This document shows positions 2,170 through 20,672 of a DNA stretch of 64,000 nucleotides, in pieces. The position numbers and the translations under genes are program-made. The stretch is from Phycisphaerae bacterium. Lineage in GTDB: Bacteria; Planctomycetota; Phycisphaerae; SM23-33. Position 1 is the first letter of the stretch. Every line of letters begins with the position of its first letter. Location of the stretch: positions 2,201 through 66,200 of the forward strand of contig JBAZTO010000016.1 of the NCBI GenBank assembly GCA_041661865.1. Reading direction: 5' to 3'. The notes below the pieces were generated by a model that saw nothing but the letters and a program-made list of their open reading frames with translations, searched no databases and was not told the origin of the DNA.

Positions 2170-3882
<1,713 letters not shown>

Positions 3883-3908: not shown

Positions 3909-4250
3909 CTACGACCGCACGGACTTGACGGCCTCCGCGGCGGTATCCAGAACCTCGAAGTATGTCAGCAAATGCGTGATCTCCAGGATTTTTCTGATGT
4001 TCTCATCGCAGTTGGTCAGCTTGACCTGCCCCATTCTCTGGGCCAACTGGTCCTGGAGGTCCATCAGGCACTCCAGGGACGCACTGTCGATAAACGGCAC
4101 CTGCTCCATATTCAGGATCAGGTCCACGATCCCATTGCCGGCCAACTGGTGATCCACCGCCTGCTTGAAGGCGACCAGACAATCTTCGGTCAGTTCACCC
4201 TTGATGTTGAGAATGACCGCGTGCCCATAACTTTCGGCGGCTACTTGCAT
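3909..4250 (-). CDS. STAS domain protein (anti-sigma-factor antagonist-like)
   Basis: 113 aa; IKGEL, DLILNMEQVPFIDSASL (STAS phosphoserine motif), VKLTNCDENIRKILEIT. Confidence 0.88.
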   Translation of the reverse strand: MQVAAESYGHAVILNIKGELTEDCLVAFKQAVDHQLAGNGIVDLILNMEQVPFIDSASLECLMDLQDQLAQRMGQVKLTNCDENIRKILEITHLLTYFEVLDTAAEAVKSVRS

Positions 4251-5896
4251 TCTTTGCTCCCTATCGCATCCAGGCCCAACGGGTTGGGCACCAGGATGCT
4301 CAGTTCATCCATAAAGGCGCTAAGGTCCATACTCAGCAGCTTGTCCACCAGCACCGCGTCCAGCTGGGTGCCGGCGTTACGCTTGATTTCGTCGGTGACG
4401 GCCGTCAGGGACATCGCCCGCCGGTAGGTTCGGTCGGAGGTCATGGCGTCGAAGCTGTCGGCCAGCCCGAGGATTCTGCCTTCCAGCGGCACCTGGTCGC
4501 CCTTGAGCCCGCGGGGATAGCCGCGCCCGTCGAGGCGTTCGTGATGCGTGACGATGCCCTCCACCACATCCTCCAACTGGCGGATGCCTCCGAGGATCCT
4601 GGCCCCGATGGCCGGGTGGCGCTTGACACTGTCGTACTCCTCGTCGGTCAGGCGGCCTGGCTTTCGCAGGACGCTCTCGGGCACGCCGATCTTGCCCACG
4701 TCGTGGAGCAGCCCGGCCAGGTAGATCCTCTGCGCGTGCTCGGCCGACAGGCCGCACGCCTCGGCCAGTCGCTTGGAAATGATCGCCACCCGCTGCGAAT
4801 GGCCGCAGGTGTAGGGATCCTTGGCGTCGATAGAGGCCGTCATCGCGTGCAAGACGCCCATCAACAGATCCTTCATGTCCGCGTAAAGCCGGCTGTACTC
4901 CAGAAAGACGGCCGTCTGCGTGCCCAGCGAACTGATGAGCTTGACATCGACGCTGTTGAAGTCGCCGCTGCGTTTGTTGAAGCCCATGAGCACGCCGATG
5001 GTCCGCTCGTCGCTGACCAGCGGGACAGCGATGAGGTTGCGGATATTGCCGGCGGCGCCGTAGGCGTGGCCGAAGTCGTTCTCGATGGCCGGATCCTGGT
5101 CCCGGATGAGCTTGCGGGCCACGAACTCGTCGGCCAGCAGCTTGATCTGCACGGCGTCGAGATTCATGTCCCCGGCGACCACGACGATCTCGTCCTCGGA
5201 GGGCCGCTTGGCATGAACCACCGCGGCGGCGGCGGAGATATTCATCACCTCCAGGATCTGCGAGCAGACGTTCTGGAGGAAATCTCGCGGCTGGCGGTTG
5301 ATGTTCATCGAGCCGGTAATGGCGTAGAGCAGGCCCAGTTCCTCGTAGGTGCTGGCCAGGTTGGCGCTGAGATTGCCCAACTCTTCCTGGCTGGTCTGGA
5401 CGGCCTGTTCGCGGGCGAGCATCCAGCCCAGGATTTTCAGGAAGTCGTCGGCCTGCGACAGCTCGTGCCGGCAGAAGGGCTGGGCCATGCCGAGGGCGGC
5501 CTGGCGGTCGATCTTGAGGCGGTCGCAGAGGCGGTTGAAGGCCTCGTCCTCCACCAACGAGCGAGGCAGGTAGCAGGCCACCGCCGCGCCCAACAGGCGT
5601 CGGCGTTGGTAGATGGGCACTCCAATCAGAGAGCAGCCGCAGGGAGAGACGCTTTGGGCCTGCCGGCCGTCATGCATCAGTTTGATGGCCAGGGACTCGG
5701 CGGCCTCGATGCAGCCGGCACGGCTTTCCTGGGCCATCTGGCAGAATTGACAAGGCGTCTGGAACTTGCCGGCCAGGCGTCCATTCTCGTCCCACACCGA
5801 GAGGTTCAGCCCGATCTCGCGCAACTGCGTCCGCAGTTGGGTCAACGCCCTGCCCATGGTCAGAAGCACACCGGGTTTTGCCGTGGTCGTCGTCAC
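4241..5896 (-). CDS. PocR-like sensor - GAF - HD-GYP c-di-GMP phosphodiesterase
   Basis: N-terminal CQFCQ...C...PCGCSLIGVPI (PocR-like); central LIAVPL...IGVLMGFNK...F (GAF); C-terminal DPYTCGHSQRV, HDVGK, HHERLDGRGYP, ADSFDAMTSDRTYR (intact HD-GYP). Confidence 0.9.
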   Translation of the reverse strand: MTTTTAKPGVLLTMGRALTQLRTQLREIGLNLSVWDENGRLAGKFQTPCQFCQMAQESRAGCIEAAESLAIKLMHDGRQAQSVSPCGCSLIGVPIYQRRRLLGAAVACYLPRSLVEDEAFNRLCDRLKIDRQAALGMAQPFCRHELSQADDFLKILGWMLAREQAVQTSQEELGNLSANLASTYEELGLLYAITGSMNINRQPRDFLQNVCSQILEVMNISAAAAVVHAKRPSEDEIVVVAGDMNLDAVQIKLLADEFVARKLIRDQDPAIENDFGHAYGAAGNIRNLIAVPLVSDERTIGVLMGFNKRSGDFNSVDVKLISSLGTQTAVFLEYSRLYADMKDLLMGVLHAMTASIDAKDPYTCGHSQRVAIISKRLAEACGLSAEHAQRIYLAGLLHDVGKIGVPESVLRKPGRLTDEEYDSVKRHPAIGARILGGIRQLEDVVEGIVTHHERLDGRGYPRGLKGDQVPLEGRILGLADSFDAMTSDRTYRRAMSLTAVTDEIKRNAGTQLDAVLVDKLLSMDLSAFMDELSILVPNPLGLDAIGSKECK

Positions 5897-5904
5897 TATC
5901 GCCC

Positions 5905-6309
5905 CTAGTTCGTTTGGATGGACTCACTCTCGATCGTCTCGTGCTCGCCCAGCAACTCGTGGACCTTCTGGAGTACTTCGCGCGGCGCGAACGGTTTGGC
6001 CAGGATCACCGAGATGCCCGCCTGCTGAAGCTCCGCCGGCTCGATATCGAACTCCCGCGCCGTCAGCATCATGGCCGGGATGTGGCGCGTGTCCTCGTGG
6101 CGGCGAAGTTCCCCGCAGAACTTCAGGCCGCTCATGAAAGGCATCTGGCAGTCCGTGATCACCAGGTCGGGCCTTTCCATCAGGCACAAGTCCAACGCCT
6201 CCTCGCCGTCCACCGCCGTCACCACGTCGTAACCGGCGTTCTTGAGCTTAAGTGACAGCACGTGCAGGATATGCGCCTCGTCGTCGGCAATCAGTATCTT
6301 CTTACTCAT
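5905..6309 (-). CDS. Single-domain response regulator (receiver only)
   Basis: ILIADDE, DLVITDCQMP (phospho-Asp), MLTA, KPF; no output domain. Confidence 0.93.
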   Translation of the reverse strand: MSKKILIADDEAHILHVLSLKLKNAGYDVVTAVDGEEALDLCLMERPDLVITDCQMPFMSGLKFCGELRRHEDTRHIPAMMLTAREFDIEPAELQQAGISVILAKPFAPREVLQKVHELLGEHETIESESIQTN

Positions 6310-6391: not shown

Positions 6392-7834
6392 TCATGCCAG
6401 TAACGGCAGTTCAAAACTGAAAGTGCTTCCCTTGCCCACTTCGCTGGTGACGGCCAGCTTGCCCTCGTGCGCCGTCTCGATGATGTGTTTGACCAGCGTC
6501 AGGCCCAGCCCGGTGCCCTTGGCCAGCTTGTTGTTGGCCTTGACCCGGTAGAACTTGTCGAAGATGCGGGGCAGATCCTGGGCGGGGATGCCCGCGCCGG
6601 TATCGGTGACCTCGCACACGGCCATGCCCCGCCGCTCGTCGGCCGAGACGCTTACGGTGATCGTGCCGCCGTCGGGGGTGTACTTGATGGCGTTGGAGAT
6701 CAGGTTCAGCGCCGCCTGGTAGATCATGTCGCGGTCGGCCTCCACCAGGTAGTACACCGGCGCGAGGCGCTCGACGACCTTGAGGGTCTTGGCCCGGGCC
6801 TGCGGGGCGGCCACGTCCAGGACCTTCCTGACCACCTCGGTCAGCACGATCGGCTCGCGGACCATCTTCACCACGCCCGACTCGATGCGGGAGATATTCA
6901 GAATGTTCTCGATGAGCCGGTGGAGACGGTCGGTCTCGCTGGAGATGATCTCGTAGAACTCGCGCTGGGTCTTGTCGTCCTTGGCCTCGCCGTCCACCAG
7001 CATCTCCACATAGGCCTTGATGGAGGCCAGCGGCGTCTTGAGTTCGTGCGAGACGTTGGAGACGAAGTCGGACTTCATCTTGGCGATTTCTTTCTCGCGC
7101 GTCACGTCATGCAGCACGGCCACCACGCCCGAGACCTCCTCGTTGGTGTTGACCACGCAGCTCAGGGTGATGTTGAAGGTTCGCGGGGTGCCCTTCTGGT
7201 CAATACTGTGTTCGACGACGTTTCGCGTGTGGCTTCGGCCGTGGCTGCGCGTCTCGCGAACCAGCCGCACCAGCGTGCCGTCGGAGATGATCTGGTCGAT
7301 GTTCTTCCGCTGGTTGCCCTCGCACTTGAAGACCAGCAACTTCTCAGCCGCCTCGTTGGCCAGGATCAGTTCGTCAAAACGGTTGGTCACGATCACGCCG
7401 TCGGAAATGGAGAAGATGATCGCCTCGGTGTGGTTCTTCTCGGCGGCGGAAATGCGGGCCTGGATCTGGAGTTCGCGATTCTCGGCCTGGATTTCGTCCA
7501 TCCGGCTGCGCGTGAGCGAAAGAAGCTGGTTGAGCGGCCGGACGACCTGTCCCAACTCGCAGGCGTCCTCGGCCAGCACCAGGCCGTACTGCCCGGTGCG
7601 GCACATCGTCTCGATCTGCCGGGCGACGGAGGTCAGCTCGCGGTAGACCCGCCGCCAGAAGGCCAGCAGGATCAGGATCGTCAGCACGGCCACCAGCGCG
7701 TAGACCAGGCCGTTAAGCCCTTTGCCTCCGGCGAGATGGCCTTGCACAACCATCATGGTGGCGTAGTAAGCGGCGCTGGCGCCCAGCACGACGAGCGTGA
7801 TGCTTGCCAGCCCCAGTCTTTTGGCGATTGTCAC
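6392..7834 (-). CDS. Membrane PAS-domain sensor histidine kinase
   Basis: H-box SHELKTPL, N-box NLISNAIKY, DTGAGI, GTGLGL; PAS region (ISDGVIVTN...LANEAA); two N-terminal hydrophobic helices. Start moved from the track's 8065 to GTG at 7834, which has a GGAGG SD upstream. Confidence 0.92.
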   Translation of the reverse strand: MTIAKRLGLASITLVVLGASAAYYATMMVVQGHLAGGKGLNGLVYALVAVLTILILLAFWRRVYRELTSVARQIETMCRTGQYGLVLAEDACELGQVVRPLNQLLSLTRSRMDEIQAENRELQIQARISAAEKNHTEAIIFSISDGVIVTNRFDELILANEAAEKLLVFKCEGNQRKNIDQIISDGTLVRLVRETRSHGRSHTRNVVEHSIDQKGTPRTFNITLSCVVNTNEEVSGVVAVLHDVTREKEIAKMKSDFVSNVSHELKTPLASIKAYVEMLVDGEAKDDKTQREFYEIISSETDRLHRLIENILNISRIESGVVKMVREPIVLTEVVRKVLDVAAPQARAKTLKVVERLAPVYYLVEADRDMIYQAALNLISNAIKYTPDGGTITVSVSADERRGMAVCEVTDTGAGIPAQDLPRIFDKFYRVKANNKLAKGTGLGLTLVKHIIETAHEGKLAVTSEVGKGSTFSFELPLLA

Positions 7835-7923
7835 GTTGGCAGCCTCCACAAAAAGGGTCCAGCCGGCCCCTGGCGGTGGGAACGAGTCTTGCCCGCCAGA
7901 GGACCGGAAGGCCCGCAGTACAC

Positions 7924-9110
7924 TTAAGGAACGCTTACGGCGTTGGAATTGCCCGACAAGGCCTTGGCCAGCGCGTTGTTGGGCTCGAGCTTCAGGGCCA
8001 GGCTGTAGCACTGTGCCGCCTGGTCCGTCTGGCCGCTGAGGGCGTGGGCCTTGCCCAGCAGGCACTGATCGTGCCGCTGGTGGAATTGGCCGCGGCCAGG
8101 GGTTCGAGCACCCTGATGGCCTGATCGGCCTGCCCCTGGCTGATCAACGCGTAGCCCAGGACGATGCCCGCCTCAACATTGGTGGAATCCAGCTTGAGGA
8201 CCTCCTTGGCGTTGAGGAGGGCCCGTCGGCCGTCGGCCATGGCCAGCGAGGCCTTGGCGATGCCCAGCCACGCGGCGGCATTGTTGGGTTCCAGTTCGGC
8301 GGCTCGGGAGAAGGCCTCCCGGGCGGCTGGGGCGCGTTTCATGCCCAGCAGGGCCGAACCCAGCGAGGTCTGAACCCAGGCCTGGGTCTTGTACTCGGGA
8401 ATCTCCGCCAGGCGCGTGAACGACTCGGCCGCCTTGCCGTACTGGCCGCCCAATAGCTGAGCCCGTCCCAACGCCTCCAGGTAGGAGGGGTTCTTGTAGT
8501 CCAGGGCACGGGCCGACTGGTAATACTTCTGCGCCTTGTCGTACGCGCCGCGCATCATGGCCAGGCGACCCGCCAGCTCGTAGAGGCCCGGGTTGTTGCC
8601 GGCATCCTCGATGCGGGCCTCGACCTCCACCTGCGCCTCTTCCACTTTGCCCATCTGGACCAGCACCTCGCCGATGGCAATGACCGTCTCCAGCGACTGG
8701 GGGTCCAGCACCGCGGCCTGGCGGTAACTGGCCAGCGCCTGCTCAAACTTACCCGCCTTCTCCTGGGCCACGCCCAGCAGGTAGCAGGCCTCGCTCGACT
8801 GCGGGCGCGCCTGGCAGACCTGCTGCAACTCGCTGCCGGCCGAATCGTATTCTCCCTGCTCTATGTAGGCCCGGCCCAGCAGCGTCCGGGCGTCGGAGTT
8901 GTCCTTCTCCAGCGCCAAGGATTCCTTGGCCGCCTTGGCGGCGTTGTCCACCTGGCCGACCTTGAGGTACTCGCTGGCCAGCCCGCACAAAACGTTCGAC
9001 CGGGCGTGATACCACCTCTTGTAGGCCTCCTCCTTGGAAACCTTCTGCGAGGCGGCTTGGCATCCAGCCAGCAGAGCCACAACCATTGCTGTAAAAATCC
9101 ATCGGGCCAT
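7924..9110 (-). pseudogene. TPR-repeat lipoprotein (pilotin PilF/PilW- or MshN-like) with an apparent 1-nt frameshift near 8067
   Basis: Lipobox LLAGC and many TPRs. The track ORF ends in non-TPR junk at 7992, while another frame from about 8067 reads QCLLGKAHALSGQTDQAAQCYSLALKLEPNNALAKAL... to TAA at 7924-7926, a good final TPR. It could be a sequencing error. Confidence 0.75.
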
Positions 9111-9184: not shown

Positions 9185-11269
9185 CTACTCCTTGGCCGGC
9201 TGGGTCGTCAGTGCCTGGGTCGAGACCGCGTTCGGGGCCGGAACCGGGGCCTCTGCCGGGGCCGGGGGCATATGCATCTTGACCTTCCGGTCGGCGCCGC
9301 TGCTGGCGGCGGGCGGCATGATCGGGTCCATCGGCCGCGGCTCGATGTCGAAGGCTTCGCGGACTTCCGGCGCGACGTCCCTGGCATGCAGGGGCTTGTC
9401 GGGAGGAATGATCCGCTGGACGGGCAGGCCCATTTCCTGCATCATCATCCGCTGCACGATGTAGGCGGCGGTGGAATCCTGGTAGTAGTCCGACCAGAAC
9501 GCCTTGCCGGTGATCTGTTCTTTCAGCGCGATGGCCTCGGTGAAGCGAGGTTCCAGGGACAGGGCCATATCGACATTCCACAGGGCCTTGTCTTCCTGCC
9601 CCTCGTTGAGGGCCTGGCGCGCCCAGCCCAGATGCGTTTGGGCCAGACGGTCGCGACCCCACCATTGCACGCCTTTACGCTGGCCGATACGGTAGCGGTT
9701 CACGTCGTCCTTCAGTTGCTCGCTGGTGGCCTCGTCGGCCGCCTGGCGAATAATGTGCGGCGTCAGCAGGATGATCAACTCCTTGCGGCGAGTCTTGTCC
9801 GCGGTCCGGCGGAAGGCCGCCCCGATGACCGGCAGGTTGCCCAGCATCGGGATCTGCGAGCGGTTGTTGTCGGTCTGCTCGCGGAACAGGCCGCCCAACA
9901 CGATGGTGTGGCCGTCGCGGACGAAGATGTTGGTCGTCAGCTCCGTGCTCTTCTTGCTGGGAATGGTATTGCCCGATACCTCCGTGACGCTTCCGGTGCT
10001 GTCCTCGGGATGGATCTCCAGACGCAGGTATCCGTCCTTGGCGATGTACGGCCGCACGATCAGGCGAGTGCCGGTTTGTAGGAACGCCACCGACTGGGTG
10101 ACCTGGCCTTCCGTGGTCGTCGTCGTGAGATAACCCAGTTCGTCACCGACCAGGACTTCGCCGCGTTGCTTGTTGACGATCAGCAGCTTGGGGTTGGCCA
10201 GCACCGTCGTGTCGACCACGCTCTCCAACGCGCTGACGAACGCCGAGACGTTGTTGGTGACAATGCCGAACTTCATGCCGCCCGGCACCGTCGGAAAATC
10301 AGTCCGGAAATTACTGACGGGCGCCTTGCTCATGTTGGCCGTGGACAGCCCGGTATTGGTGATGGTGCCGATGGGATCGCTGGTCGAACCCAGCGTCTCA
10401 AAGTCCACGCCGCACAACGTGGTTAAGTTCACGCCCAGGGCATTGTCTTCCGTCAGTTCGGCGCTGAGGATGGTCGCCTCCAGGAGTACCTGTTCGGGCC
10501 TGACATCCAGCCTGTTGAGGATCTGCTCGACCTGCTTGAGGTTGTCCTCGTAGTCCGTCACGATCAGCACGTCGCCGGAGGCCGTGCTGTTGCCCCCGGT
10601 ATCGGTGTTGCTGGGTCCGATGCCCGTCCCCGCGTCGGGAGTGGTGGAAACCAGGGCCTCCTTCGACAACACCGGGGCGATCAGATCCTTGGTGTCCTTG
10701 GCGTTGATGTAGGACAGGTGGAAGGTGCGGGTGGACACCTTCTGGGCAGCCCTCTCGGCCTCTTCCTTTTGCTTGGGCGTGTAGACGTAGATGAAGCCGT
10801 CCTTCTCCAGGTAGACAAAGCCCGTCGAGCGGAGCACCGCGTCCAGGGCGTCCTTGAAGCTCACGCCGTACAGGTCGGCCGTCACGGTGCCGGCGACGTC
10901 CCGGGTGGCCACGATGTTCTTCTTGCCCTGGGTGCTGAGCAACTGGAGCACGCCGCGAAGGTCGGCGCCTTGGACGTGGATCTCGAACGTGCCGGGCTTG
11001 GTCACGCGGACAGGATCCCCCTCGGCGTTGGGGTCGAGGGAGTTGGCGGCCTGCCGATTCGGCGTGGCGGCCTGGGCCGCCGGCGGAGTGGTTCCAGACA
11101 CTTCGGCGGACTTGGGCGCCACCAGCCCGCTGAGAGTCTTTGACGGAGAGGACGCGGACGGAGAGGACGCGGATTTATCTTCCGCCGCGGCCACCCGGGG
11201 GAGGGTCAACACAATAAGGGCGGCCAATCCAGTCCCCGCCCATAACACCTTTGAGCTCCGCGATATCAT
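9185..11269 (-). CDS. pilQ: Secretin (PilQ/MshL/GspD family) with C-terminal extension
   Basis: Signal peptide; STN/N0-like region (DLRGVLQLLS...KNIVAT...VTADL); N3 region; secretin core (QVLLEATIL, LANPKLLIVN...GE, DGHTIVLGGLF, IPMLGNLPVIGAAFR, ELIILLTPHII). Confidence 0.92.
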   Translation of the reverse strand: MISRSSKVLWAGTGLAALIVLTLPRVAAAEDKSASSPSASSPSKTLSGLVAPKSAEVSGTTPPAAQAATPNRQAANSLDPNAEGDPVRVTKPGTFEIHVQGADLRGVLQLLSTQGKKNIVATRDVAGTVTADLYGVSFKDALDAVLRSTGFVYLEKDGFIYVYTPKQKEEAERAAQKVSTRTFHLSYINAKDTKDLIAPVLSKEALVSTTPDAGTGIGPSNTDTGGNSTASGDVLIVTDYEDNLKQVEQILNRLDVRPEQVLLEATILSAELTEDNALGVNLTTLCGVDFETLGSTSDPIGTITNTGLSTANMSKAPVSNFRTDFPTVPGGMKFGIVTNNVSAFVSALESVVDTTVLANPKLLIVNKQRGEVLVGDELGYLTTTTTEGQVTQSVAFLQTGTRLIVRPYIAKDGYLRLEIHPEDSTGSVTEVSGNTIPSKKSTELTTNIFVRDGHTIVLGGLFREQTDNNRSQIPMLGNLPVIGAAFRRTADKTRRKELIILLTPHIIRQAADEATSEQLKDDVNRYRIGQRKGVQWWGRDRLAQTHLGWARQALNEGQEDKALWNVDMALSLEPRFTEAIALKEQITGKAFWSDYYQDSTAAYIVQRMMMQEMGLPVQRIIPPDKPLHARDVAPEVREAFDIEPRPMDPIMPPAASSGADRKVKMHMPPAPAEAPVPAPNAVSTQALTTQPAKE

Positions 11270-11356: not shown

Positions 11357-11917
11357 CTAACTTCCTTTCATCTCCAAAACGACTTTGACGTCGGCCTTTT
11401 CCAGCGTCACCGACCCGCTGGTGATCTCCATGACCTGGAACCCGCCGATCTGACTTCCGATTTTCAGCACTTTTCCGTTGATGATCGCGGTCGGGCTGGC
11501 CGAGAGGATGGTGCTTTGCAGGGTCATGCCCCGAACCTGGTCATCGGCCGCCTTGGCCGCCTCGTCGTGGTTGTCCGGTTGAACGCTGGCCGCGACCCCC
11601 GAGGGAAACAGCCCGGCCGGCGCCGAGAAGATGTCCCGCTGGATCGTCGTGTCAATCTCCCGCAGGTACTTGTCGCGGCTGGGATCGACGGCAGACTCGT
11701 CGGCGGAGTTCGTCAAGGCCGGCTCGGTCGGGGCAGGGCTCGCCGCCACAACCAGTGGCGCCGCCGCGGCCGAGGAGGGAACACCCTTGAAGATCAGCTT
11801 CCCGAATACCACCAGCCCAACGCAGAGCAGGACGCCCAGGGTCAGGGCCTTCTTCTTGTCCCGCTTCAGCTCGTCGAGCAGTTGGTTCTTGATTCTTGTG
11901 ATGCTGTCGTTTGCCAT
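11357..11917 (-). CDS. MshK/PilP/GspC-like pilus alignment protein
   Basis: One N-terminal TM helix, an RDIF motif and a C-terminal beta domain LQSTIL...AIINGKVLKIGSQIGGFQVMEI...VTL; lies between pilO and the secretin. Confidence 0.6.
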   Translation of the reverse strand: MANDSITRIKNQLLDELKRDKKKALTLGVLLCVGLVVFGKLIFKGVPSSAAAAPLVVAASPAPTEPALTNSADESAVDPSRDKYLREIDTTIQRDIFSAPAGLFPSGVAASVQPDNHDEAAKAADDQVRGMTLQSTILSASPTAIINGKVLKIGSQIGGFQVMEITSGSVTLEKADVKVVLEMKGS

Positions 11918-11933
11918 GGCTACAGATCCCGTC

Positions 11934-12464
11934 TTAGCTCTTGGTGAAGTAAATGTTCATGAAAAGCTCGAATTCCATCGGCTTGTTGTCCTCGCGAGGC
12001 GTCAGGATCATCAGCCGCTGCACCCGCGTCAGACGCTGCATTCGCTCGATGTTTTTCAGGAAGCTCGCCAAGGCCAGGTAAGAGCCCTTGAACTTCATCT
12101 GGATGGGCATCGTGTTGAACAGATCCTCGCTCGTGGGGCTGCCGGTCTCCATCAGGCCGTCGGACAAGGCCGACTCCCGCTGGATGCCCGAGATCTCCTG
12201 GAGGAATCCGCCCAGTTCCTTGCTCTTGGGAAGCTTGCGGTCAAAGTCCTTGTAGCGGTTCTTGAGGCTCTGAACCCTGCGCATCAGGTCGGGAACCACG
12301 GCGGCCTTGTTCCGATCGGCATCCAGCGCCAGACGCTTGGTGGCGATCTCGGTCCGCAGTCCCTCCAACTTGGCGTTCTGCGGGCGATACACCGCCAGCA
12401 GCGAGACGACCGCGACGCTGCCGGCCAGGCCCAGCACGATCCAGTTTTCTTTCGTCAACTTCAT
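11934..12464 (-). CDS. pilO: Type IV pilus alignment protein PilO
   Basis: N-terminal TM helix, coiled coil, KLP...L..FL..I, then PIQMKFKGSYLALASFLKNIERMQRL; follows pilN. Start set at MKLTKEN. Confidence 0.85.
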   Translation of the reverse strand: MKLTKENWIVLGLAGSVAVVSLLAVYRPQNAKLEGLRTEIATKRLALDADRNKAAVVPDLMRRVQSLKNRYKDFDRKLPKSKELGGFLQEISGIQRESALSDGLMETGSPTSEDLFNTMPIQMKFKGSYLALASFLKNIERMQRLTRVQRLMILTPREDNKPMEFELFMNIYFTKS

Positions 12465-12478
12465 GTTTGCTGCCTCTC

Positions 12479-13090
12479 TTAGCGAACCACGTAGCAACTG
12501 GCCTGGAACTCCCGGACGGTCCGGCCGCGGTACTCGACGTTGCGGGAGTAACCCATGCTCACGTCCTCAAACAGCTTGCAGGCCGACATCTGGGCGATAA
12601 AGTTGGCCAGGTCCACGTCCGTCGGGGCCAGACCCGTGAAGGTCAGTTGCACCCGCTTGGTGATTCTCTCGCCGCCCAGGCCCGCCGAGGCGGACCTATC
12701 CGCCGGCTTGACCGGCACGGGCACGGACTTGGCCTCCAGGTTCAGGTTGGTCAGGAAAATCGTTTCGGGCAGCAGCCGTTCCATCTCAGCCAGCACTTCC
12801 AGGGCGTTCACGCGGCTGCCCAACTGGTCGTCGATCCGCTTCTTGATCATCAGGTCGGCCTGCTGACGCTCCAGATCCTGGCGGAAGGACATCTGCTTGT
12901 GGATAGCGGCCGACTGGTCTTCCAGGGCGGCCATCTCGGCGTGGGCCTGGGCGATCTGTCCCTGCCGCAGACCGGCCAGCGCCGCCACGCCCAGCGTCGC
13001 CAGACCCACCAGGATCAACTGGCGAATCATGCTCCTGCGGCTGGCCTGTTGGCGCCGAATGCGTTCAGGCAGAAAGTTTATGTTCAGCAT
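12479..13090 (-). CDS. pilN: Type IV pilus alignment protein PilN
   Basis: Starts MLNINFLP (the PilM-binding INLLP motif), then TM helix, coiled coil and LPETIFLTNL; between pilM and pilO. Confidence 0.87.
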   Translation of the reverse strand: MLNINFLPERIRRQQASRRSMIRQLILVGLATLGVAALAGLRQGQIAQAHAEMAALEDQSAAIHKQMSFRQDLERQQADLMIKKRIDDQLGSRVNALEVLAEMERLLPETIFLTNLNLEAKSVPVPVKPADRSASAGLGGERITKRVQLTFTGLAPTDVDLANFIAQMSACKLFEDVSMGYSRNVEYRGRTVREFQASCYVVR

Positions 13091-14204
13091 GTTGAGCCTC
13101 TGAAGGATTGCGGATCGCGCGAAGCGACATTCCGGCGCACAGCGCCCACTCGGGGAAGCAACCACGCTCGTGCGCCTCGCTTTGCAGGGCCGTGGTGTCC
13201 ACGCCCTGGAGCGGCTGGCCCAGGACGCACTCGACATCGAGATGCTCGCCCAGGATCTTGGAGATCGACGGGTCGTAGGCCTCCCCGCCGCACAGGACGA
13301 TTTGCGAGGGCCTCAGCCCGCGGAAAGTGACCGAACAGTAACGCAGGCACAGGGCTATCTCCGAGGCCAGCGACTCCACCTCGGCCCGAATGGCATCGTG
13401 CATGGTCCAGTCCAGGTTCCCGTCGACGCCGGCCTGGCCCTTGATCATCGCGTCGGATCGCTGGCGGATCATCCGCTGGCGGAGCTGGCAGGCCTCGTCG
13501 AAGCCCAGGCCTAACTGCTTGGAGACCGCCTCGACCATGTGCCTGCCGCCCAGCTCGATGCTCTTGATGAAAACCACCTGCTCGCCGCGCCCCACCACCA
13601 CGCGCGTGCCGCTGTAACCGACATCCACCACCACGCTGATGCCCGGGTCGTCGCTCTTGCGAGGGAGGGAGCGACCCAGAACGCGGTAGACGACAATCGG
13701 GGCCGCCTCGATGAACACGGGCGTCAGTTTCATCTCCGCCAGCAGGGCCGTGTGCGCCTCGATGGTCTTGCCCTCCACCGCCAGCAGGATGATCTCCTGG
13801 CAGGTGTCGTTGCCGGAGCGGACCTCGCCGGCGCTGAGGAAGTTGAACTGGTCGTCGGCCACTTCAAAGCCCAGGCGTTCCTGGGCCTCCCACTTCAGGG
13901 CGTTCCGCATTTCCGCCTCGGGCATGGCCGGCATGCGGAGACTCTTGATGGCCAGCTCCGAGCAGGACAAGGCCGTCACGACCTTCCTGCCCTCGAAGCC
14001 GCCCTGGCGCCTCAATTCCGCCACGCCCGCGACGACCTGCTGACGCCATTGCGCCGGGTCGGCCGTCTTGGCCAGCGGCTTGTAGCCCCAGGCCGCCACG
14101 CGCGGCCCCTGCTTGGTCGAGTCCAACTGGAGCATCTTGATGCTGTCGGCGCCGATGTCCAGTGCGATCGGCTGTCGCTTGTTCTTTGCCCATAAACGTG
14201 TCAT
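13065..14204 (-). CDS. pilM: Type IV pilus actin-like protein PilM
   Basis: IALDIGADSIKMLQL, VVVDVGYSGT, IELGGRHM, IVLCGGEA (actin-like ATPase fold motifs). Confidence 0.92.
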   Translation of the reverse strand: MTRLWAKNKRQPIALDIGADSIKMLQLDSTKQGPRVAAWGYKPLAKTADPAQWRQQVVAGVAELRRQGGFEGRKVVTALSCSELAIKSLRMPAMPEAEMRNALKWEAQERLGFEVADDQFNFLSAGEVRSGNDTCQEIILLAVEGKTIEAHTALLAEMKLTPVFIEAAPIVVYRVLGRSLPRKSDDPGISVVVDVGYSGTRVVVGRGEQVVFIKSIELGGRHMVEAVSKQLGLGFDEACQLRQRMIRQRSDAMIKGQAGVDGNLDWTMHDAIRAEVESLASEIALCLRYCSVTFRGLRPSQIVLCGGEAYDPSISKILGEHLDVECVLGQPLQGVDTTALQSEAHERGCFPEWALCAGMSLRAIRNPSEAQHAEHKLSA

Positions 14205-14226: not shown

Positions 14227-14754
14227 TTACGGTTTCGCCTGCACCGACACTCGGCCGGTCGCCGAGGCCACGTCGATGTAGTAGACGTTTGCCCTGGCCT
14301 GCAACACGATGTTGTGCGTCGCCGGACTCAGCGGCGCCACCGTGCCCGGCGCTCCCAGCACGTCGAACGTCACGGCGCTTCCACCGTTGAAGTTCACCGA
14401 GTAAACATCCACGTTTTCGGTGCCGGGGGTGGTCCTGAAGCCGACCACGTAGTCTGTCTTCGTGATCGGGTTTTTCAGCAGGCCACTTGCGTTAGATAAT
14501 TGGTAACTCTCGGCGCCGGTGTTGAATGTCACCGTCACCGGAACCTGGGTGGTGATGGCGGTGTCCTGGGCGTATTGCAGGTCGGCCGCGAGCATCCTTG
14601 CCGCGCCCATCACCTGCAAATCACTGGCATTGGACAACTTGGGAACAATCACGGCCGCGGCGATGCTCAGAATCACCAGCATCACGATCACTTCGGTGAG
14701 GGTGTAGCCTCGCCGGACGGTCCGATAATTACGGATTGCTGGCCTTGGAGTCAT
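14227..14754 (-). CDS. Minor pilin, FimU/FimT/GspH-like
   Basis: Class III signal RRG|YTLTEVIVMLVILSIAAAVIVP; AARMLAADLQYAQ..AI; C-terminal GRV. Start moved to 14754. Confidence 0.85.
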   Translation of the reverse strand: MTPRPAIRNYRTVRRGYTLTEVIVMLVILSIAAAVIVPKLSNASDLQVMGAARMLAADLQYAQDTAITTQVPVTVTFNTGAESYQLSNASGLLKNPITKTDYVVGFRTTPGTENVDVYSVNFNGGSAVTFDVLGAPGTVAPLSPATHNIVLQARANVYYIDVASATGRVSVQAKP

Positions 14755-15136
14755 TTCCCTCTCCTTCCGTGTAGGTAACACCGCCCTGGACGGGCGCTCC
14801 GGCGGCCGGCGGCGCGCTGCTGGACTGGTCCGCAACGATCTGGAACTTCGCGTTGCCGCTTTCCAGGAGCTTCTTGATCTCATCGAGCTTCTGGTTGGTC
14901 TGGGTCGAGATGCCGACCATTTCGTCCAGGTTCAGGGTGCTGTATTTCTGGTAGCGGTCCGGGGGCGGCGTGAACATCTTGTTGTTGCTATCGGCCGCGA
15001 GGGCCTTGCCCGCCGACGGAACGCCCTCGGCCCACAGGCCCAGCACCACCACTGTCAGCAGCACCATGATGGCCGTCAGGCAAAACCGCGTGTACCAATC
15101 GACCTTCATCCTGATCTGAGTTCTCGTGTCTTTCAT
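14729..15136 (-). CDS. Small membrane-anchored hypothetical protein inside the pilin cluster
   Basis: 135 aa; N-terminal hydrophobic helix (DWYTRFCLTAIMVLLTVVVLGLW) and a short coiled coil; same strand and tightly packed between pilin genes. Confidence 0.6.
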   Translation of the reverse strand: MKDTRTQIRMKVDWYTRFCLTAIMVLLTVVVLGLWAEGVPSAGKALAADSNNKMFTPPPDRYQKYSTLNLDEMVGISTQTNQKLDEIKKLLESGNAKFQIVADQSSSAPPAAGAPVQGGVTYTEGEGNDSKASNP

Positions 15137-15150
15137 ATTTCACTCCGGGT

Positions 15151-16266
15151 CTAGTAGTTCCATCGAACAATCTGAATCTTGGATACCGCGCTGCCGGCGT
15201 CGTGCAGGGTCTGGATGTCGGCGGGGGCCAAAACTTTGTCGAAAATAGCCACTTCGTCCATGCTGCCCTTGAAGAACTGGCTCTCGCCCCACTGGGAGCC
15301 GATGTAGAGGTCGGCCTTCCTGCCGCCGGTGGGTTTCTTTTTCCCCTCGCTATAGTTCCAGACGCCCACCTGGACTCCCTCCAGGTAGACCCGGATGGTG
15401 CGGCTGCTGATCTCCCGCGTGAGCGTCAGGTTGTGCCAGACCCCCGCGCTGATGTTCAGCCCGGTGAAGGTATTGGCATGGTCGCGTCCCTTTTTGTATT
15501 CGTCGAGGTATTCCAGATCCCCGCTTGGGTTGATTACCATCTCGTAAGTGGTGTTATCCCTTTTCCTCTCAGTGTCCTCGCTGCTGGTCACCAGCGTGTA
15601 CTTGTCGCTGGGCAGGCTGTCCATCTTGAACCACATGGACACCGTCATGTCGCCGCGGAGTTGGAGATCCCGAGTCGCGTCCCGGGTCAGGTAGTCGTTG
15701 GCGCCGTCAAGGGTCATGGCCTTGTCCGAGTCGCTCGGCAATGCCCCGGCAGCGCCCATCGTGACGGAGTTCTTGACAGTCAGGTCGTAGTCGTCCGACG
15801 TGGCATCGTCTGCCACATTCCCGGAAATCTCCCCCAGCCGCCAGTAGCCTACCGGAGATTGGGACATGACGGTATTCTGGTAGGCGGGCGGCGCGTAGAC
15901 GAGCATGGAAGGTTTCTGCATGCCCTTGCCAAACGTGGCTTTGCCCGTCAGTACGTAGTAGCCCGGGTTATTGGCATCCGCAGTCCCCCAGAAGTAGTAG
16001 GTGTCGGCGGTGCCGTCGGCGTGAAAAGGCCCCAGCGGGCGGGCTTCGCTGGTGCCGGCGAAGGCGTTGCAGTCCTTCTGCAACTGGTAGAGGGCGTGCT
16101 GGAGGGCCGACTCGCCCAGGTATCGGGCTCTCGCCGCCTGGAGCATGTTGTGACTGGCGGTCATTTTGATGGTGGCGCTGGAGACGTAACTGCCGGCCAG
16201 CACCACGGCCAGTGCCACGGCCAGCAGCACCAGCAACATCGCCATGCCTGTGGATTGTCTTTTCAT
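15151..16266 (-). CDS. PilX/GspK-like minor pilin fused to a LamG (concanavalin A-like lectin) domain
   Basis: MKRQSTG|MAMLLVLLAVALAVV (no Glu5, as in PilX); ARARYLGESALQHA; then PVGYWRL.E, LDGANDY, MTVSMWFK, WHNLTLT, VYLEG, LYIG, FFKGSMDEVAIFDKVL (LamG_3 signature). Confidence 0.85.
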   Translation of the reverse strand: MKRQSTGMAMLLVLLAVALAVVLAGSYVSSATIKMTASHNMLQAARARYLGESALQHALYQLQKDCNAFAGTSEARPLGPFHADGTADTYYFWGTADANNPGYYVLTGKATFGKGMQKPSMLVYAPPAYQNTVMSQSPVGYWRLGEISGNVADDATSDDYDLTVKNSVTMGAAGALPSDSDKAMTLDGANDYLTRDATRDLQLRGDMTVSMWFKMDSLPSDKYTLVTSSEDTERKRDNTTYEMVINPSGDLEYLDEYKKGRDHANTFTGLNISAGVWHNLTLTREISSRTIRVYLEGVQVGVWNYSEGKKKPTGGRKADLYIGSQWGESQFFKGSMDEVAIFDKVLAPADIQTLHDAGSAVSKIQIVRWNY

Positions 16267-16341
16267 CGGGATCGTTACCTCTAGTCCCTCATCGGCGCAA
16301 TCGCGCCCCCAGATAATTAGCGATTTCGGCTTGGGAGGCCT

Positions 16342-16466
16342 CACAGGCGTCTCGCCTGTGTCCGGGGGTAGCACAGGCTTTCCAGCCTGTGCGTGACACC
16401 GCTTGGAAAAGCTGTGCCACCTGTTGGGACGGCCTCTTAATGCACAGGCGAGACGCCTGTGCTACC
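16342..16466. repeat. Cluster of REP-like palindromes (CACAGGC..GCCTGTG family)
   Basis: CACAGGCGTCTCGCCTGTG (16342-16360), GGTAGCACAGGCTTTCCAGCCTGTG (16367-16391), a degenerate partner at 16401-16421 and GCACAGGCGAGACGCCTGTGCTACC (16442-16466). Confidence 0.85.
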
Positions 16467-16483
16467 ATCGCGGCCTCTGGAGG

Positions 16484-17119
16484 TTAGCCGCCTATCAGGA
16501 CGTATTGTCCGCCGGAAATGCCCACCTTGCTCGTCAAACCGGCGCGGGTGGAAGCGGCGCTGCGAAGCGTGATCTTTTGCGTGCCCACGCCGACGGTCAT
16601 GTTGACCTTCACCAGCGTCGCCAGGGGCGGAGTGGGCGTGGCGCTGAAAATGCAACTGCTGACGTCGGTGGTCAGGAGCTGGGCGGGGGCGTAAGTGCTG
16701 TTGAGAATCTGCGGCACGATGCTCGTCGCGTTGGTCAGCGACGACAGCGGGACGGCCGTATTCAGGGCGGCCTGGATATTGGCGGGGAAACTGCATCGGG
16801 AGAACTTGATCTGGCCGGAGGCAAACGATATCACGCCGATCTCGTCCATGTTGACAAGGTTGTTGCCGTTGGTGTCGTCCAGCCAGAGTACGACCGTGTT
16901 GGCGCTGCAATAGGTCGCCAGTTTGGAACTCTGCACGAGGCTCTGGATCTTGAGCATGGCGCTTCGGCCGGTCTGGATGGACTGGTAGTAGTCCTCGGTG
17001 CTGGCGTGGGCCTTGGAGATGGCCATGGTCACCCCGGCCACCGAGAGGCTGGTGATGGACATAATCAAGATCGAGAGCGTCAGTTCCAACGCGGTGAATC
17101 CGGTCCTGCGTCGCGTCAT
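16484..17119 (-). CDS. Minor pilin, PilW/GspJ-like
   Basis: MTRRRTG|FTALELTLSILIMSI class III signal with Glu5. Confidence 0.8.
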   Translation of the reverse strand: MTRRRTGFTALELTLSILIMSITSLSVAGVTMAISKAHASTEDYYQSIQTGRSAMLKIQSLVQSSKLATYCSANTVVLWLDDTNGNNLVNMDEIGVISFASGQIKFSRCSFPANIQAALNTAVPLSSLTNATSIVPQILNSTYAPAQLLTTDVSSCIFSATPTPPLATLVKVNMTVGVGTQKITLRSAASTRAGLTSKVGISGGQYVLIGG

Positions 17120-17134
17120 GTAAAACTCCTTCAA

Positions 17135-17638
17135 CTAGAGCGTCAGGCAGATCAGGCGGCTGAGCGTGATCAAGGTCGTGCCGCGGTGCTTGACCGTGAC
17201 GGTCACGCGGTAGAAGTCCGCCGGCTTGCTGGTGTCCTGCCCGTCCAACCAGGCGTAGGCGACGGTGGTTTCGCGTGACAGGCCCGAGGACAAGGGGCTC
17301 TTGATGATCGCGCCGCCGGCGTCGGCGATCTGCCCGGCCGCCTCGGTCACAGTCTTGTAGTCGTTGACGTCGTCGTAGCGGCTGCGCGTGACCTCGCCCG
17401 CGTCGGGGCCGAAAGCCGTTCCGCCCTGGGGGTCTTTCACCGGCTTGGACAGGACTTCTTCCATCATTTCCTGGGCCAGCCCTGTGGCCAGGGTCATCCG
17501 GCCGTCGGTCTCCTCGTTGCGTGCCCCGGCGGCGAACGGCATGGTGATGGCCGTGATGGCCACCGTCAGCACCACCGCGGCCATGAGGGACTCGACGAGC
17601 GTAAAAGCCTTCGTGCCAGTCTGTTGTAGTCGGTCCAT
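17135..17638 (-). CDS. Minor pilin, PilV/GspI/MshD-like
   Basis: TKA|FTLVESLMAAVVL; ATGLAQEMMEEVLSK; YDDVNDY; C-terminal VTVTV. Confidence 0.82.
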   Translation of the reverse strand: MDRLQQTGTKAFTLVESLMAAVVLTVAITAITMPFAAGARNEETDGRMTLATGLAQEMMEEVLSKPVKDPQGGTAFGPDAGEVTRSRYDDVNDYKTVTEAAGQIADAGGAIIKSPLSSGLSRETTVAYAWLDGQDTSKPADFYRVTVTVKHRGTTLITLSRLICLTL

Positions 17639-17651
17639 ATCCCCTTCTCCG

Positions 17652-18155
17652 TCAATAACTGAAGAAAGCGACTCCCGCGTTGTCGCTGCCCTGCGAATCA
17701 GCTTTCAGCCTGTCGATGGAGGGTTGGTAAACCCAGCCGTGCGAATCGTCCGCGGCTCCGGGCAGGCTGCCACCGTCGGGAATGATCTCAACGGTCTTCT
17801 TGCCGTTGACGGGGTTGGCGGGGATCTCTCGCAGGTAGGGACCGTAGGGATAGCCGGCCGTTCCCGCCGCGGCGCACTCCCCGTTCCCCTTGGAGGCGCT
17901 GATCATTTGCAGGACCAGTGCCGCCTCGGTCGGCGCGACCGCCGGGTCGCAGCCGGGATACCCTGCCGCAACGTTGTGCTGGCCCTTAAAAACAGCCAAC
18001 TGCGTGCGGAAGGTCCGAAGGTCGTCGGCCAGCATGCTGGCCCTGGCGGTAGCCGCCGCATTGGACACCTTAGGCAGCACAATCGCCGCCAGAATGCCCA
18101 GGATGAGGACCACGATCAGGATTTCGACCAGCGTAAATGCCATCTGTTTCTTCAT
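17652..18155 (-). CDS. Major pilin paralog 2 (GspG/PilA-like)
   Basis: QMA|FTLVEILIVVLILGILAAIVLP; paralogous to 18301-18792 along its length. Confidence 0.88.
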   Translation of the reverse strand: MKKQMAFTLVEILIVVLILGILAAIVLPKVSNAAATARASMLADDLRTFRTQLAVFKGQHNVAAGYPGCDPAVAPTEAALVLQMISASKGNGECAAAGTAGYPYGPYLREIPANPVNGKKTVEIIPDGGSLPGAADDSHGWVYQPSIDRLKADSQGSDNAGVAFFSY

Positions 18156-18300: not shown

Positions 18301-18792
18301 TTACAGCCCGCTGAAGGCAACACCCGCGGAGTTGTTGCCCGTATTGTCCGCGGACAGGCGACCCGAGTTGGGGTCGAAGTGCCAGGCGTCGGTGCCCGCA
18401 CCGGCCGCAGCGCCAGCCACGCGAACGGTCGTTCTGCCGCTGATCGCGTTGGTCGGGAAGCTCTGCATGTACGGGCCAAAAGCGCCCGCGGTTCCGTTGG
18501 CAACGATATTGCCGTACTGGTCGGTCTGGCTGGTCAACTTGACGGCGAAGTTGGCGTCAGCCACCCAAGTCGCGCCGCTGTCAGCCGACTTGACATTGGG
18601 ATAGTGGTCGTTGTGCTGGATGTTGTACAGCTCCAACTGGCTGCGCAGCGTCTGAAGGTCGCTGGTCAGTGAAGACTCGCGGGCGTCCTGGGACGCCGAG
18701 CTGAACTGCGGGATCACGATCGCGGCCAAGATGCCCAGAATGATCACAACGATCAGAATTTCAACCAAAGTAAAACCTTTATTGCTAGTCAT
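18301..18792 (-). CDS. Major pilin paralog 1 (GspG/PilA-like)
   Basis: MTSNKG|FTLVEILIVVIILGILAAIVIPQF; GGAGG SD upstream of ATG 18792; first gene of the cluster. Confidence 0.9.
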   Translation of the reverse strand: MTSNKGFTLVEILIVVIILGILAAIVIPQFSSASQDARESSLTSDLQTLRSQLELYNIQHNDHYPNVKSADSGATWVADANFAVKLTSQTDQYGNIVANGTAGAFGPYMQSFPTNAISGRTTVRVAGAAAGAGTDAWHFDPNSGRLSADNTGNNSAGVAFSGL

Positions 18793-18928: not shown

Positions 18929-18953
18929 GGTACCACAGGCCTCTGGCCTGTGA
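18929..18953. repeat. REP-like palindrome (CACAGGC family)
   Basis: GGTACCACAGGCCTCTGGCCTGTGA, the same architecture as the 16342-16466 units. Confidence 0.65.
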
Positions 18954-20616: not shown

Positions 20617-20672
20617 GGGTGGCACAGGCTTTCGAGCCTGTGCATGCATGTGCTTGGAAAGGCTGTGCCACC
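20617..20672. repeat. REP-like doublet (GGTGGCACAGGC...GCTGTGCCACC)
   Basis: Inverted arms GGTGGCACAG/CTGTGCCACC with an internal CAGGCTTTCGAGCCTG hairpin, immediately after the MafA-like stop codon. Confidence 0.8.

Follow-up and report, generated by a model that had tools for sequence, protein, structure and literature searches.

The window analysed in this work (the whole stretch of 64,000 nucleotides from contig JBAZTO010000016.1 of an uncultured Phycisphaerae bacterium of groundwater) encodes on its minus strand, at 15151-16266, a cap-type minor pilin that carries a LamG module. The protein of 371 amino acids, hereafter K-LamG, is of the K type (GspK/PilX/ComZ class) and its gene lies in a cluster of type IV pilus genes. 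We lean towards the view that K-LamG caps a pilus resembling the type IVa pili (T4aP) and that its LamG module serves as the outward, ligand-binding head at the tip of a retractile filament, a glycan being the most likely ligand. The structural part of this proposal, a cap pilin with a LamG module, is rated much higher than the chain as a whole, and the lectin part stands at about even odds; where in the filament the protein sits, how its module is inserted, what class of ligand it binds and that capture is coupled to retraction are matters that we infer.

The gene is contained in a single long minus-strand open reading frame (ORF) that spans 15151-16374 and has its stop end at 15151. The ATG at 16266 is preceded by GAGG, a Shine-Dalgarno sequence, and translation from there gives 371 residues beginning MKRQSTG|MAMLLVLLAVALAVVLAGSYV. 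The start of the protein, read as MKRQSTG|MAMLLVLLAVAL, aligns with R-x-S-G|F-A-L-V-L-V-L-I leaders in all homologues, every one of which has at the same point a basic, Gly-ended leader followed by F/M-A-L/M-hydrophobic residues. Since all homologue leaders align there, the start was placed at 16266, which upholds the choice made in an earlier note on this DNA. That the LamG ORF is an over-long call of an overlapping frame was ruled out by its G+C content at third and second codon positions (GC3 0.82, GC2 0.45) and by cross-locus conservation. No RNA runs with the K-LamG sequence were found, and it was present only in groundwater and freshwater DNA metagenomes.

The prepilin leader MKRQSTG (residues 1-7; 16246-16266 on the minus strand, as for all features below unless stated otherwise), with cleavage predicted at G|M from the sequence and the homologue alignment, has the features of a class III signal peptide: it is short, basic and Gly-ended, and is followed by about 20 hydrophobic residues of α1N. 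The mature protein would start M-A-M-L-L, with Leu at position 5 and no Glu5, whereas Glu5 is present in the products of all five adjoining pilin genes as FT(L/A)(V/L)E or YTLTE. The NCBIfam GspK model (NF037980) aligns with residues 6-69 at E 1.9e-8, but with 34.2 bits against a cut-off of 130, so that the match to the curated GspK family is below threshold and confined to the N-terminal 65 residues. In the Pfam scan K-LamG itself gave no PilX_N match at E<=0.01, PilX_N being recorded for several of its homologues, and no N_methyl match; the canonical combination of N_methyl/IPR012902 with Glu5 is thus missing from this pilin. The PilX-type N-terminus without Glu5 reported in the earlier note is borne out in the form of a GspK-type leader, G|MAMLL.

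K-LamG is built of four parts: the GspK-type leader, a long α1 helix, a small pilin β-sheet and a complete Laminin_G_3 domain. Pfam Laminin_G_3 (PF13385) matched residues 187-352 with 90.4 bits against a cut-off of 27.6 (E 1.6e-25), and the whole profile, positions 1-151 of 151, was covered. The AlphaFold2 (AF2) model obtained with an 11-sequence family alignment has a mean pLDDT (predicted local distance difference test score) of 80.6 and shows, in order, a helix at 3-64, five antiparallel strands at 78-124, a short helix, a β-sandwich at 140-360 and a strand at 365-370. The α1 helix of the pilin fold (residues 8-64; 16075-16245), delimited by AF2, alignment and hhalign, bears an invariant RARYLxES motif, the invariant columns among homologues being R46, A47, Y49, L50, S53 and H57. 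The antiparallel sheet of the pilin domain (residues 78-124; 15895-16035) comprises strands 78-82, 89-96, 103-112, 115-117 and 120-124 in the model and is shared with the β-solenoid sister proteins described below. The LamG/ConA-like jelly-roll module, assigned from Pfam, AF2 and Foldseek, extends over residues ~136-362 (15181-15861; Pfam envelope 187-352) and is acidic, with an isoelectric point (pI) of 4.7. Beyond it lies the terminal strand (residues 365-370; 15157-15174) with the tail KIQIVRWNY. When the model was compared by Foldseek with the Protein Data Bank (PDB), only jelly rolls of the LamG/ConA type were matched, with a probability of 1.00 to LamG-type domains; AbnA domain 4, the trans-sialidase lectin domain and the clostridial neurotoxin Hc domain were among them. 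The complete LamG/ConA-like domain claimed earlier is therefore seen in the profile match and in the modelled fold alike.

The position of the module within the pilin fold is indicated by the C-terminus. A motif h-x-h-x-W-x-[DE] is common to the LamG-type relatives and to those of a β-solenoid type, with tails such as IVRWND, VRSWDR, VLSWDD and IIEWND, and in AF2 models of both types this W-x-D tail forms a terminal β-strand beyond the module. The shared strand belongs most simply to the pilin scaffold, because the intervening ~230 residues are unrelated between the two types. Strand 365-370 would thus return to the pilin sheet, and the LamG module probably entered the pilin fold by insertion ahead of its last strand, in the manner of ComZ, rather than being merely appended. 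The earlier description of a LamG domain fused to the pilin is in this respect probably to be corrected, a plain C-terminal fusion being less likely than an insertion.

Relatives of K-LamG place it in a family in which the pilin part is constant and the module is not. A word-index search returned a dozen full-length homologues with 27-50% identity; when only the N-terminal 133 residues were used as query, the index failed to recover even K-LamG, which reflects its limit on short queries and is not evidence of absence. A scan of GTDB genomes with the single protein gave no relative and a profile-guided, alignment-based scan was required, which detected 29 loci, all but one in metagenome-assembled genomes (MAGs) of Phycisphaerae or other Planctomycetota, the weakest of the 29 being in a Rokubacteria MAG. 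In about 25 loci the operon order G, G, I, J, K, a small protein (in most), H, PilM, N, O, P, secretin, tetratricopeptide repeat (TPR) protein and histidine kinase is kept; the K-LamG locus is not a product of chance, because this gene order recurs in some 25 independent loci at 30-50% identity. In the public databases the proteins are named 'PilX N-terminal domain-containing pilus assembly protein', 'LamG-like jellyroll fold domain-containing protein', 'Tfp pilus assembly protein PilX' or hypothetical.

Fourteen of the loci match residues 1-125 of the query only, with K genes of the same length; among those scanned no LamG match was found, and some gave weak bactofilin-like matches. Alignment of the LamG and non-LamG groups by hhalign gave 100% probability over residues 1-148 and nothing past them. 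A profile search with the non-LamG group collected 149 proteins, and of 96 K-like sequences that could be classified 66 were of the non-LamG and 30 of the LamG type. The AF2 model of a non-LamG member, P0182 (28-sequence alignment, pLDDT 89.6), has the same helix and sheet, then a long series of short strands and a final strand. Its best match in the PDB is ComZ of Thermus thermophilus (6QVI; E 1.3e-6, probability 1.00), followed by ice-binding β-solenoids, and the ComZ paper names the same two comparators as were found in the P0182 search (PMC6561018). At the level of sequence the profile comparison of ComZ with this sister family was marginal (E 0.09). Judging by these sequences, the usual Phycisphaerae form is a ComZ-like protein with a β-solenoid and the LamG form is a minority variant.

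The LamG-type K proteins fall into two groups. The module of the window protein scores 174-235 bits against most members of its own group, 111-115 bits against LamG repeats of giant non-pilin proteins and 64-77 bits against the second K-LamG group, the reverse being true for a second-group module. In a neighbour-joining tree of the N-terminal module, constructed without bootstrap, the LamG types form two blocks with the solenoid types interleaved, and by PilM identity to the window the second-group LamG loci are not separable from the solenoid loci. These comparisons suggest that the same site acquired a LamG module on at least two occasions. A broader reading, to which we give a little less than an even chance, is that the K pilin acts as a 'socket' with a fixed α1, sheet and terminal W-x-D strand, in which heads are swapped between the last two strands: a solenoid in most cases, and LamG captured at least twice, each time independently, from the many repeats of giant surface proteins. 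With the operon held constant, tip specificity in diderm T4aP free of PilY1 would then change by cassette exchange.

Two sets of related proteins were recorded outside this arrangement. An orphan K-LamG paralogue, P0012 (10001-11062 of L003 and 267-1328 of L004), lies apart from pilin or PilMNOPQ genes and adjoins unannotated ORFs of 235 and 347 amino acids; some genomes may hold spare cap pilins. In MAGs of Planctomycetaceae, Pirellulaceae and other Planctomycetota (L029-L031, L033) short K-like proteins of 141-167 amino acids were found with the α1 RARYLAE motif only, and in L029-L032 the cluster layout differs, with PilB/GspE upstream and short pilin-like matches. The short proteins look like cap pilins that have no module, from a different class of planctomycetes.

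In the window itself K-LamG belongs to a co-oriented minus-strand cluster in the order G, G, I, J, K-LamG, small membrane protein, H, PilMNOP and secretin, with PilB, PilT and PilC further on. Two GspG-like pilins recognized by Pfam and NCBIfam are encoded at 18301-18792 (G|FTLVEILIVV; probably the major pilin) and 17652-18155 (A|FTLVEILIVV). The minor pilin of the I/PilV type (17135-17638, A|FTLVE) has weak matches to PilV (E 9e-4) and HpsB (E 2e-3), and the one in the J/PilW position (16484-17119, G|FTALE, with Glu5) a weak N_methyl match, so that I and J are assigned on the leader motif, size, weak matches and gene order taken together. PDB profile searches with the I- and J-like proteins gave no significant pilin match beyond the N-terminal helix. 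The H component is a GspH/FimU-like minor pilin (14227-14754, G|YTLTE) matched by Pfam GspH (E 8e-7) and NCBIfam GspH/ComGD. K-LamG is accordingly encoded together with H, I and J minor pilins, all three with Glu5, and the FimU-, PilV- and PilW-like partners proposed earlier could be located next to it. Between K and H lies a gene for a bitopic membrane protein of 135 amino acids without Pfam or NCBIfam match (14729-15136).

The assembly machinery follows downstream: PilM (13065-14204; Pfam PilM_2, E 8e-25), PilN (12479-13090; Pfam PilN, E 8e-8), PilO (11934-12497; Pfam PilO, E 2.5e-17), a periplasmic protein in the PilP/GspC position (11357-11917; weak CdsD_C and GspC matches, conserved position) and a secretin of the PilQ/GspD type (9185-11269; Pfam Secretin, E 1e-40), which the PilQ and GspD models both score at ~216 bits. 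A TPR lipoprotein with an LAGC lipobox, candidate for a PilW/Tgl-like pilotin (7992-9110), is followed by a PAS histidine kinase (6392-8065), a response regulator (5905-6309), a GAF-HD-GYP phosphodiesterase (4241-5896) and an ORF of 113 amino acids (3909-4250) that lies outside the family scans. The last three genes encode an extension ATPase of the PilB/GspE family with an MshE-type N-terminus of the kind that binds cyclic di-GMP (c-di-GMP) (2170-3882), the PilT retraction ATPase (1084-2142; TIGR01420, 397.5 bits against a cut-off of 319.1) and the PilC/GspF platform protein, partial at the window edge (3-1067). All components of a type IVa machine are thus represented: PilM, PilN, PilO, a PilP-like protein, secretin, extension ATPase, platform protein and PilT. 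The PilB and GspE models score nearly equally (604 and 602 bits) and PilC is best recognized as GspF; by sequence, the machine is intermediate between T4aP and the type II secretion system (T2SS). We take its architecture to be that of T4aP because PilM/N/O, PilT and the TPR lipoprotein are present. A retractile filament, as suggested in the earlier note, is a reasonable assumption because PilT is present, with a score above its cut-off.

Among the scanned ORFs of the window there is no match to PilY1, vWA or MshQ-like proteins, and a tip adhesin of the PilY1 type encoded with the minor pilins is absent from them. The earlier statement that no PilY1/MshQ gene lies between the pilins and pilC agrees with this for the ORFs scanned there, the 113-residue ORF at 3909-4250 being outside the scan. 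In the approximately 25 syntenic loci PilY1 is not apparent, as judged from the conserved gene order and from the called genes of three loci that were inspected. The surroundings of the cluster include ORFs for a glycoside hydrolase of family 4 (GH4) and for fucosidase-like, rhamnosidase-like, β-helix and pectate-lyase proteins, in keeping with the region rich in glycan-degrading enzymes that had been noticed before.

The LamG module is proposed as the tip head because the cap subunit bears a domain of the binding type and no PilY1 is encoded in the operon. In the mechanism that we envisage the prepilin peptidase would cleave K-LamG after Gly7, and the α1 helix devoid of Glu5 would restrict it to the top of an H-I-J-K priming complex, so that it would be the first subunit to enter the filament and would stay at the tip. 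The pilin fold would bear the LamG jelly roll of ~230 residues between its core sheet and last strand, at the site where Thermus ComZ and the commoner Phycisphaerae relatives bear a β-solenoid. LamG would face outward as the head that binds the ligand, most probably a polysaccharide or another glycan, and extension by PilB and retraction by PilT would allow the cell to tether to its target or to pull in on it, with no need for an adhesin of the PilY1 type. Among solved structures AbnA domain 4 is closest to the module in sequence as well as in fold, and its aromatic concave cleft binds arabinopentaose (PMC9110388). PilC of Streptococcus sanguinis is an example of a ConA-like module on a tip pilin that is a genuine lectin (PMC9934059), and glycoside hydrolase genes lie close to the cluster. 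Binding of carbohydrate by the LamG module is plausible, and its acidic character argues against DNA as the ligand.

Several points weigh against this proposal. The ligand-binding residues of the module are not identifiable, the invariant LamG columns being the generic fold signature of PF13385, and PF13385 is extremely common and not always a lectin: 282,795 representative proteins were matched at E<=0.001 in a profile search of the whole library with the full-length alignment, a search dominated by giant proteins with many LamG domains. Proteins, too, are among the ligands of LamG folds. The orphan K-LamG paralogue P0012 is not encoded in a pilus operon; a PilY1 could be present elsewhere in the genome; and the ATPase and platform proteins score equally well as components of T2SS, which leaves room for a secretion pseudopilus. 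Taken as a whole the earlier reading is partly supported. Its architecture, the H, I and J partners, the retractile filament and the glycan-gene setting stand; the plain fusion was probably an insertion, lectin modules at pilus tips had been described before, and the LamG form is a minority variant of this protein.

The nearest alternative, which we regard as unlikely, keeps the same tip pilin and lets LamG bind something other than carbohydrate, such as proteins of other cells, surfaces of mineral or organic nature or the envelope of the cell itself, so that it would be an adhesin or recognition head and no lectin. The protein-binding capacity of the LamG/ConA fold and the clostridial neurotoxin Hc domains among the Foldseek matches are in line with it, as are the great difference in loops between the two LamG lineages and the lack of a recognisable sugar-binding motif; yet of the solved relatives whose ligand is known the nearest binds a glycan, the published modular pilins of this fold bind glycans, and the genomic setting is one of glycan degradation. 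Still less probable, in our estimate, is a machine of the T2SS or a hybrid type in which K-LamG caps a short pseudopilus and helps to load or push (glyco)proteins, for example glycoside hydrolases, through the secretin. The pilins and minor pilins are indeed best recognized as GspG/H/K, the GspE and GspF models score at least as well as those for PilB and PilC, the secretin is equally GspD and PilQ, and many genes for exo-enzymes are nearby. However, PilT exceeds a curated cut-off, PilM/N/O together with the PilW/Tgl-like TPR lipoprotein take the place of GspL/M/C, and the sister form resembles ComZ, which is part of a true pilus (PMC6561018).

An explanation of similarly low probability makes LamG nothing but a bulky structural cap, comparable to the α-domain of GspK, that is required for priming but binds no external ligand. 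What the α-domain of GspK does is itself unclear (PMC8179133), and any bulky domain might serve, given that the identity of the module is not conserved. Repeated swaps to classic binding folds (β-solenoid, two LamG lineages) fit diversification driven by ligands better, and ComZ does bind a ligand. That K-LamG is a ComZ-like DNA receptor for natural transformation appears very improbable: its pilin module is homologous to ComZ-like proteins and the operon position is the same, but in place of the DNA-binding solenoid it has a LamG module, which is acidic.

The idea of a lectin module at the tip of a pilus is already published (PMC8179133, PMC9934059), and K-LamG is best judged against the known systems closest to it. 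In H-I-J-K complexes the bulky K subunit devoid of Glu5 acts as the cap, and the complex primes assembly, stays at the tip and, in diderm T4aP, presents PilY1 (PMC9934059). K-LamG shares with GspK of T2SS and with PilX of Pseudomonas aeruginosa T4aP the G|M-A-hydrophobic leader, the lack of Glu5 and the H/I/J partners; it differs in falling below the GspK cut-off, in having no GspK α-domain and in carrying its extra module, LamG, probably at a ComZ-like site and not between strands 3 and 4. P. aeruginosa has PilY1, a protein of its own, as adhesive effector. The tip adhesins PilY1/PilC of diderm T4aP have the role proposed here, that of a tip effector presented by the minor-pilin complex, but PilY1 is a large non-pilin β-propeller protein, whereas in K-LamG the binding domain is built into the cap pilin.

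ComZ of T. thermophilus has a GspK-like pilin domain, has been argued to lie at the pilus tip and binds PilA2 and DNA (PMC6561018). ComZ (6QVI; PMC6561018) resembles K-LamG in having this domain in the K position, undetected by standard pilin motifs. The module of K-LamG is an acidic LamG jelly roll instead of a β-solenoid, with DNA an unlikely ligand, and its insertion topology is deduced from the order of elements in the model and the shared tail. In the survey of Raynaud et al. (PMC8179133) N_methyl plus PF13385 is among the fifteen most frequent architectures of modular pilins, and ComZ and GspK are discussed as cases of inserted modules; glycan binding has been demonstrated for the tip-located lectin pilin PilC of Streptococcus sanguinis (Shahin et al., PMC9934059). 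These modular pilins, PilC included, combine a pilin with a ConA/LamG-like module as K-LamG does, and tip display, shown for them, would be expected for K-LamG. Their class III signal peptide is canonical and includes Glu5, and their module is appended at the C-terminus; PilC has an immunoglobulin (Ig) domain as well and comes from a monoderm. K-LamG is a cap subunit that lacks Glu5 and belongs to a diderm PilMNOPQ machine. It would be invisible to a survey based on IPR012902 because it has no N_methyl match. Membership in the TafC family of haloarchaeal Tat-fimbriae (NF052521; PMC11821415) was considered and rejected: the match is confined to the LamG region (E 1.2e-10) and sub-threshold, 41 bits against a cut-off of 410. 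Both proteins are associated with filaments, but the likeness is at the level of the domain only, as these fimbriae (Tafi), which depend on Tat and form by strand donation, have no relationship to type IV pilins.

Our search of the literature on minor pilins with LamG, on Phycisphaerae pili and on the K-LamG family found nothing relevant. What sets K-LamG apart is the Glu5-less carrier, the diderm PilMNOPQ machine, LamG at what is probably a ComZ-type site and a module that varies among close relatives. The source of binding specificity in type IV pili is a live question: it resides in a separate PilY1 in model diderms, in modular pilins in Streptococcus and in ComZ in Thermus. To these the K-LamG family adds the cap pilin of a diderm PilMNOPQ machine that bears a binding head, the head varying among close relatives. 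No current model is overturned, but the range of modular pilins is widened to Glu5-less K subunits missed by motif-based surveys, and the K family provides a natural setting in which to study how modules are exchanged at one defined site of a structure. It also suggests a possible way for polysaccharide-degrading Planctomycetota to tether to particulate glycans.

Some features of the cluster deserve mention in their own right. The spacer between J and K (16267-16483) is unusually long, 217 nt, compared with a gap of at most ~40 nt in two relatives that were checked (L001, L005). It holds three of the five copies in the window of the palindrome CACAGGC-N4-5-GCCTGTG (16342-16360, 16372-16391, 16443-16461, 18934-18952 and 20623-20642), for which the chance expectation is none, and its folding is unusually stable (z = -5.5). 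The palindrome looks like a hairpin element of the repetitive extragenic palindrome (REP) type inserted in the minor-pilin operon, and in the J-K spacer it could alter mRNA processing or stability.

The J minor pilin has at residues ~75-95 an EF-hand/dockerin-like calcium loop, which in the window reads LWLDDTNGNNLVNMDE. The family consensus is W-x-D-T-N-G-D-G-x-I-N-x-x-E, with W, D and E invariant in 14 orthologues, and weak dockerin and EF-hand matches were obtained in the PDB. The calcium switch of other T4aP resides in PilY1, and the loop in J is of note because the scanned ORFs here include no PilY1. The gene for the 135-residue membrane protein has a tblastn match in most syntenic Phycisphaerae loci, though not in L024, L027 and L028, and its product may be an accessory part of the pilus machinery that has not been described before.

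The genes for the kinase, response regulator and GAF-HD-GYP protein lie within the cluster, after those for the secretin and TPR protein and before PilB. Relatives gave matches to the kinase and to the HD-GYP protein, and the response regulator was seen in L001/L002. The MshE-type c-di-GMP-binding motif of PilB scores above its cut-off, which suggests control of pilus extension by c-di-GMP. At two prepilin cleavage sites, those of the second GspG-like pilin (MKKQMA|FTLVE) and of the I-like pilin (GTKA|FTLVE), the residue at position -1 is apparently Ala and not Gly. Finally, a protein of 680 amino acids from the uncharacterised DUF6785/DUF6784 family is encoded on the plus strand at 26775-28817 amid the GH4, fucosidase-like and β-helix genes, in a glycan-utilisation setting.

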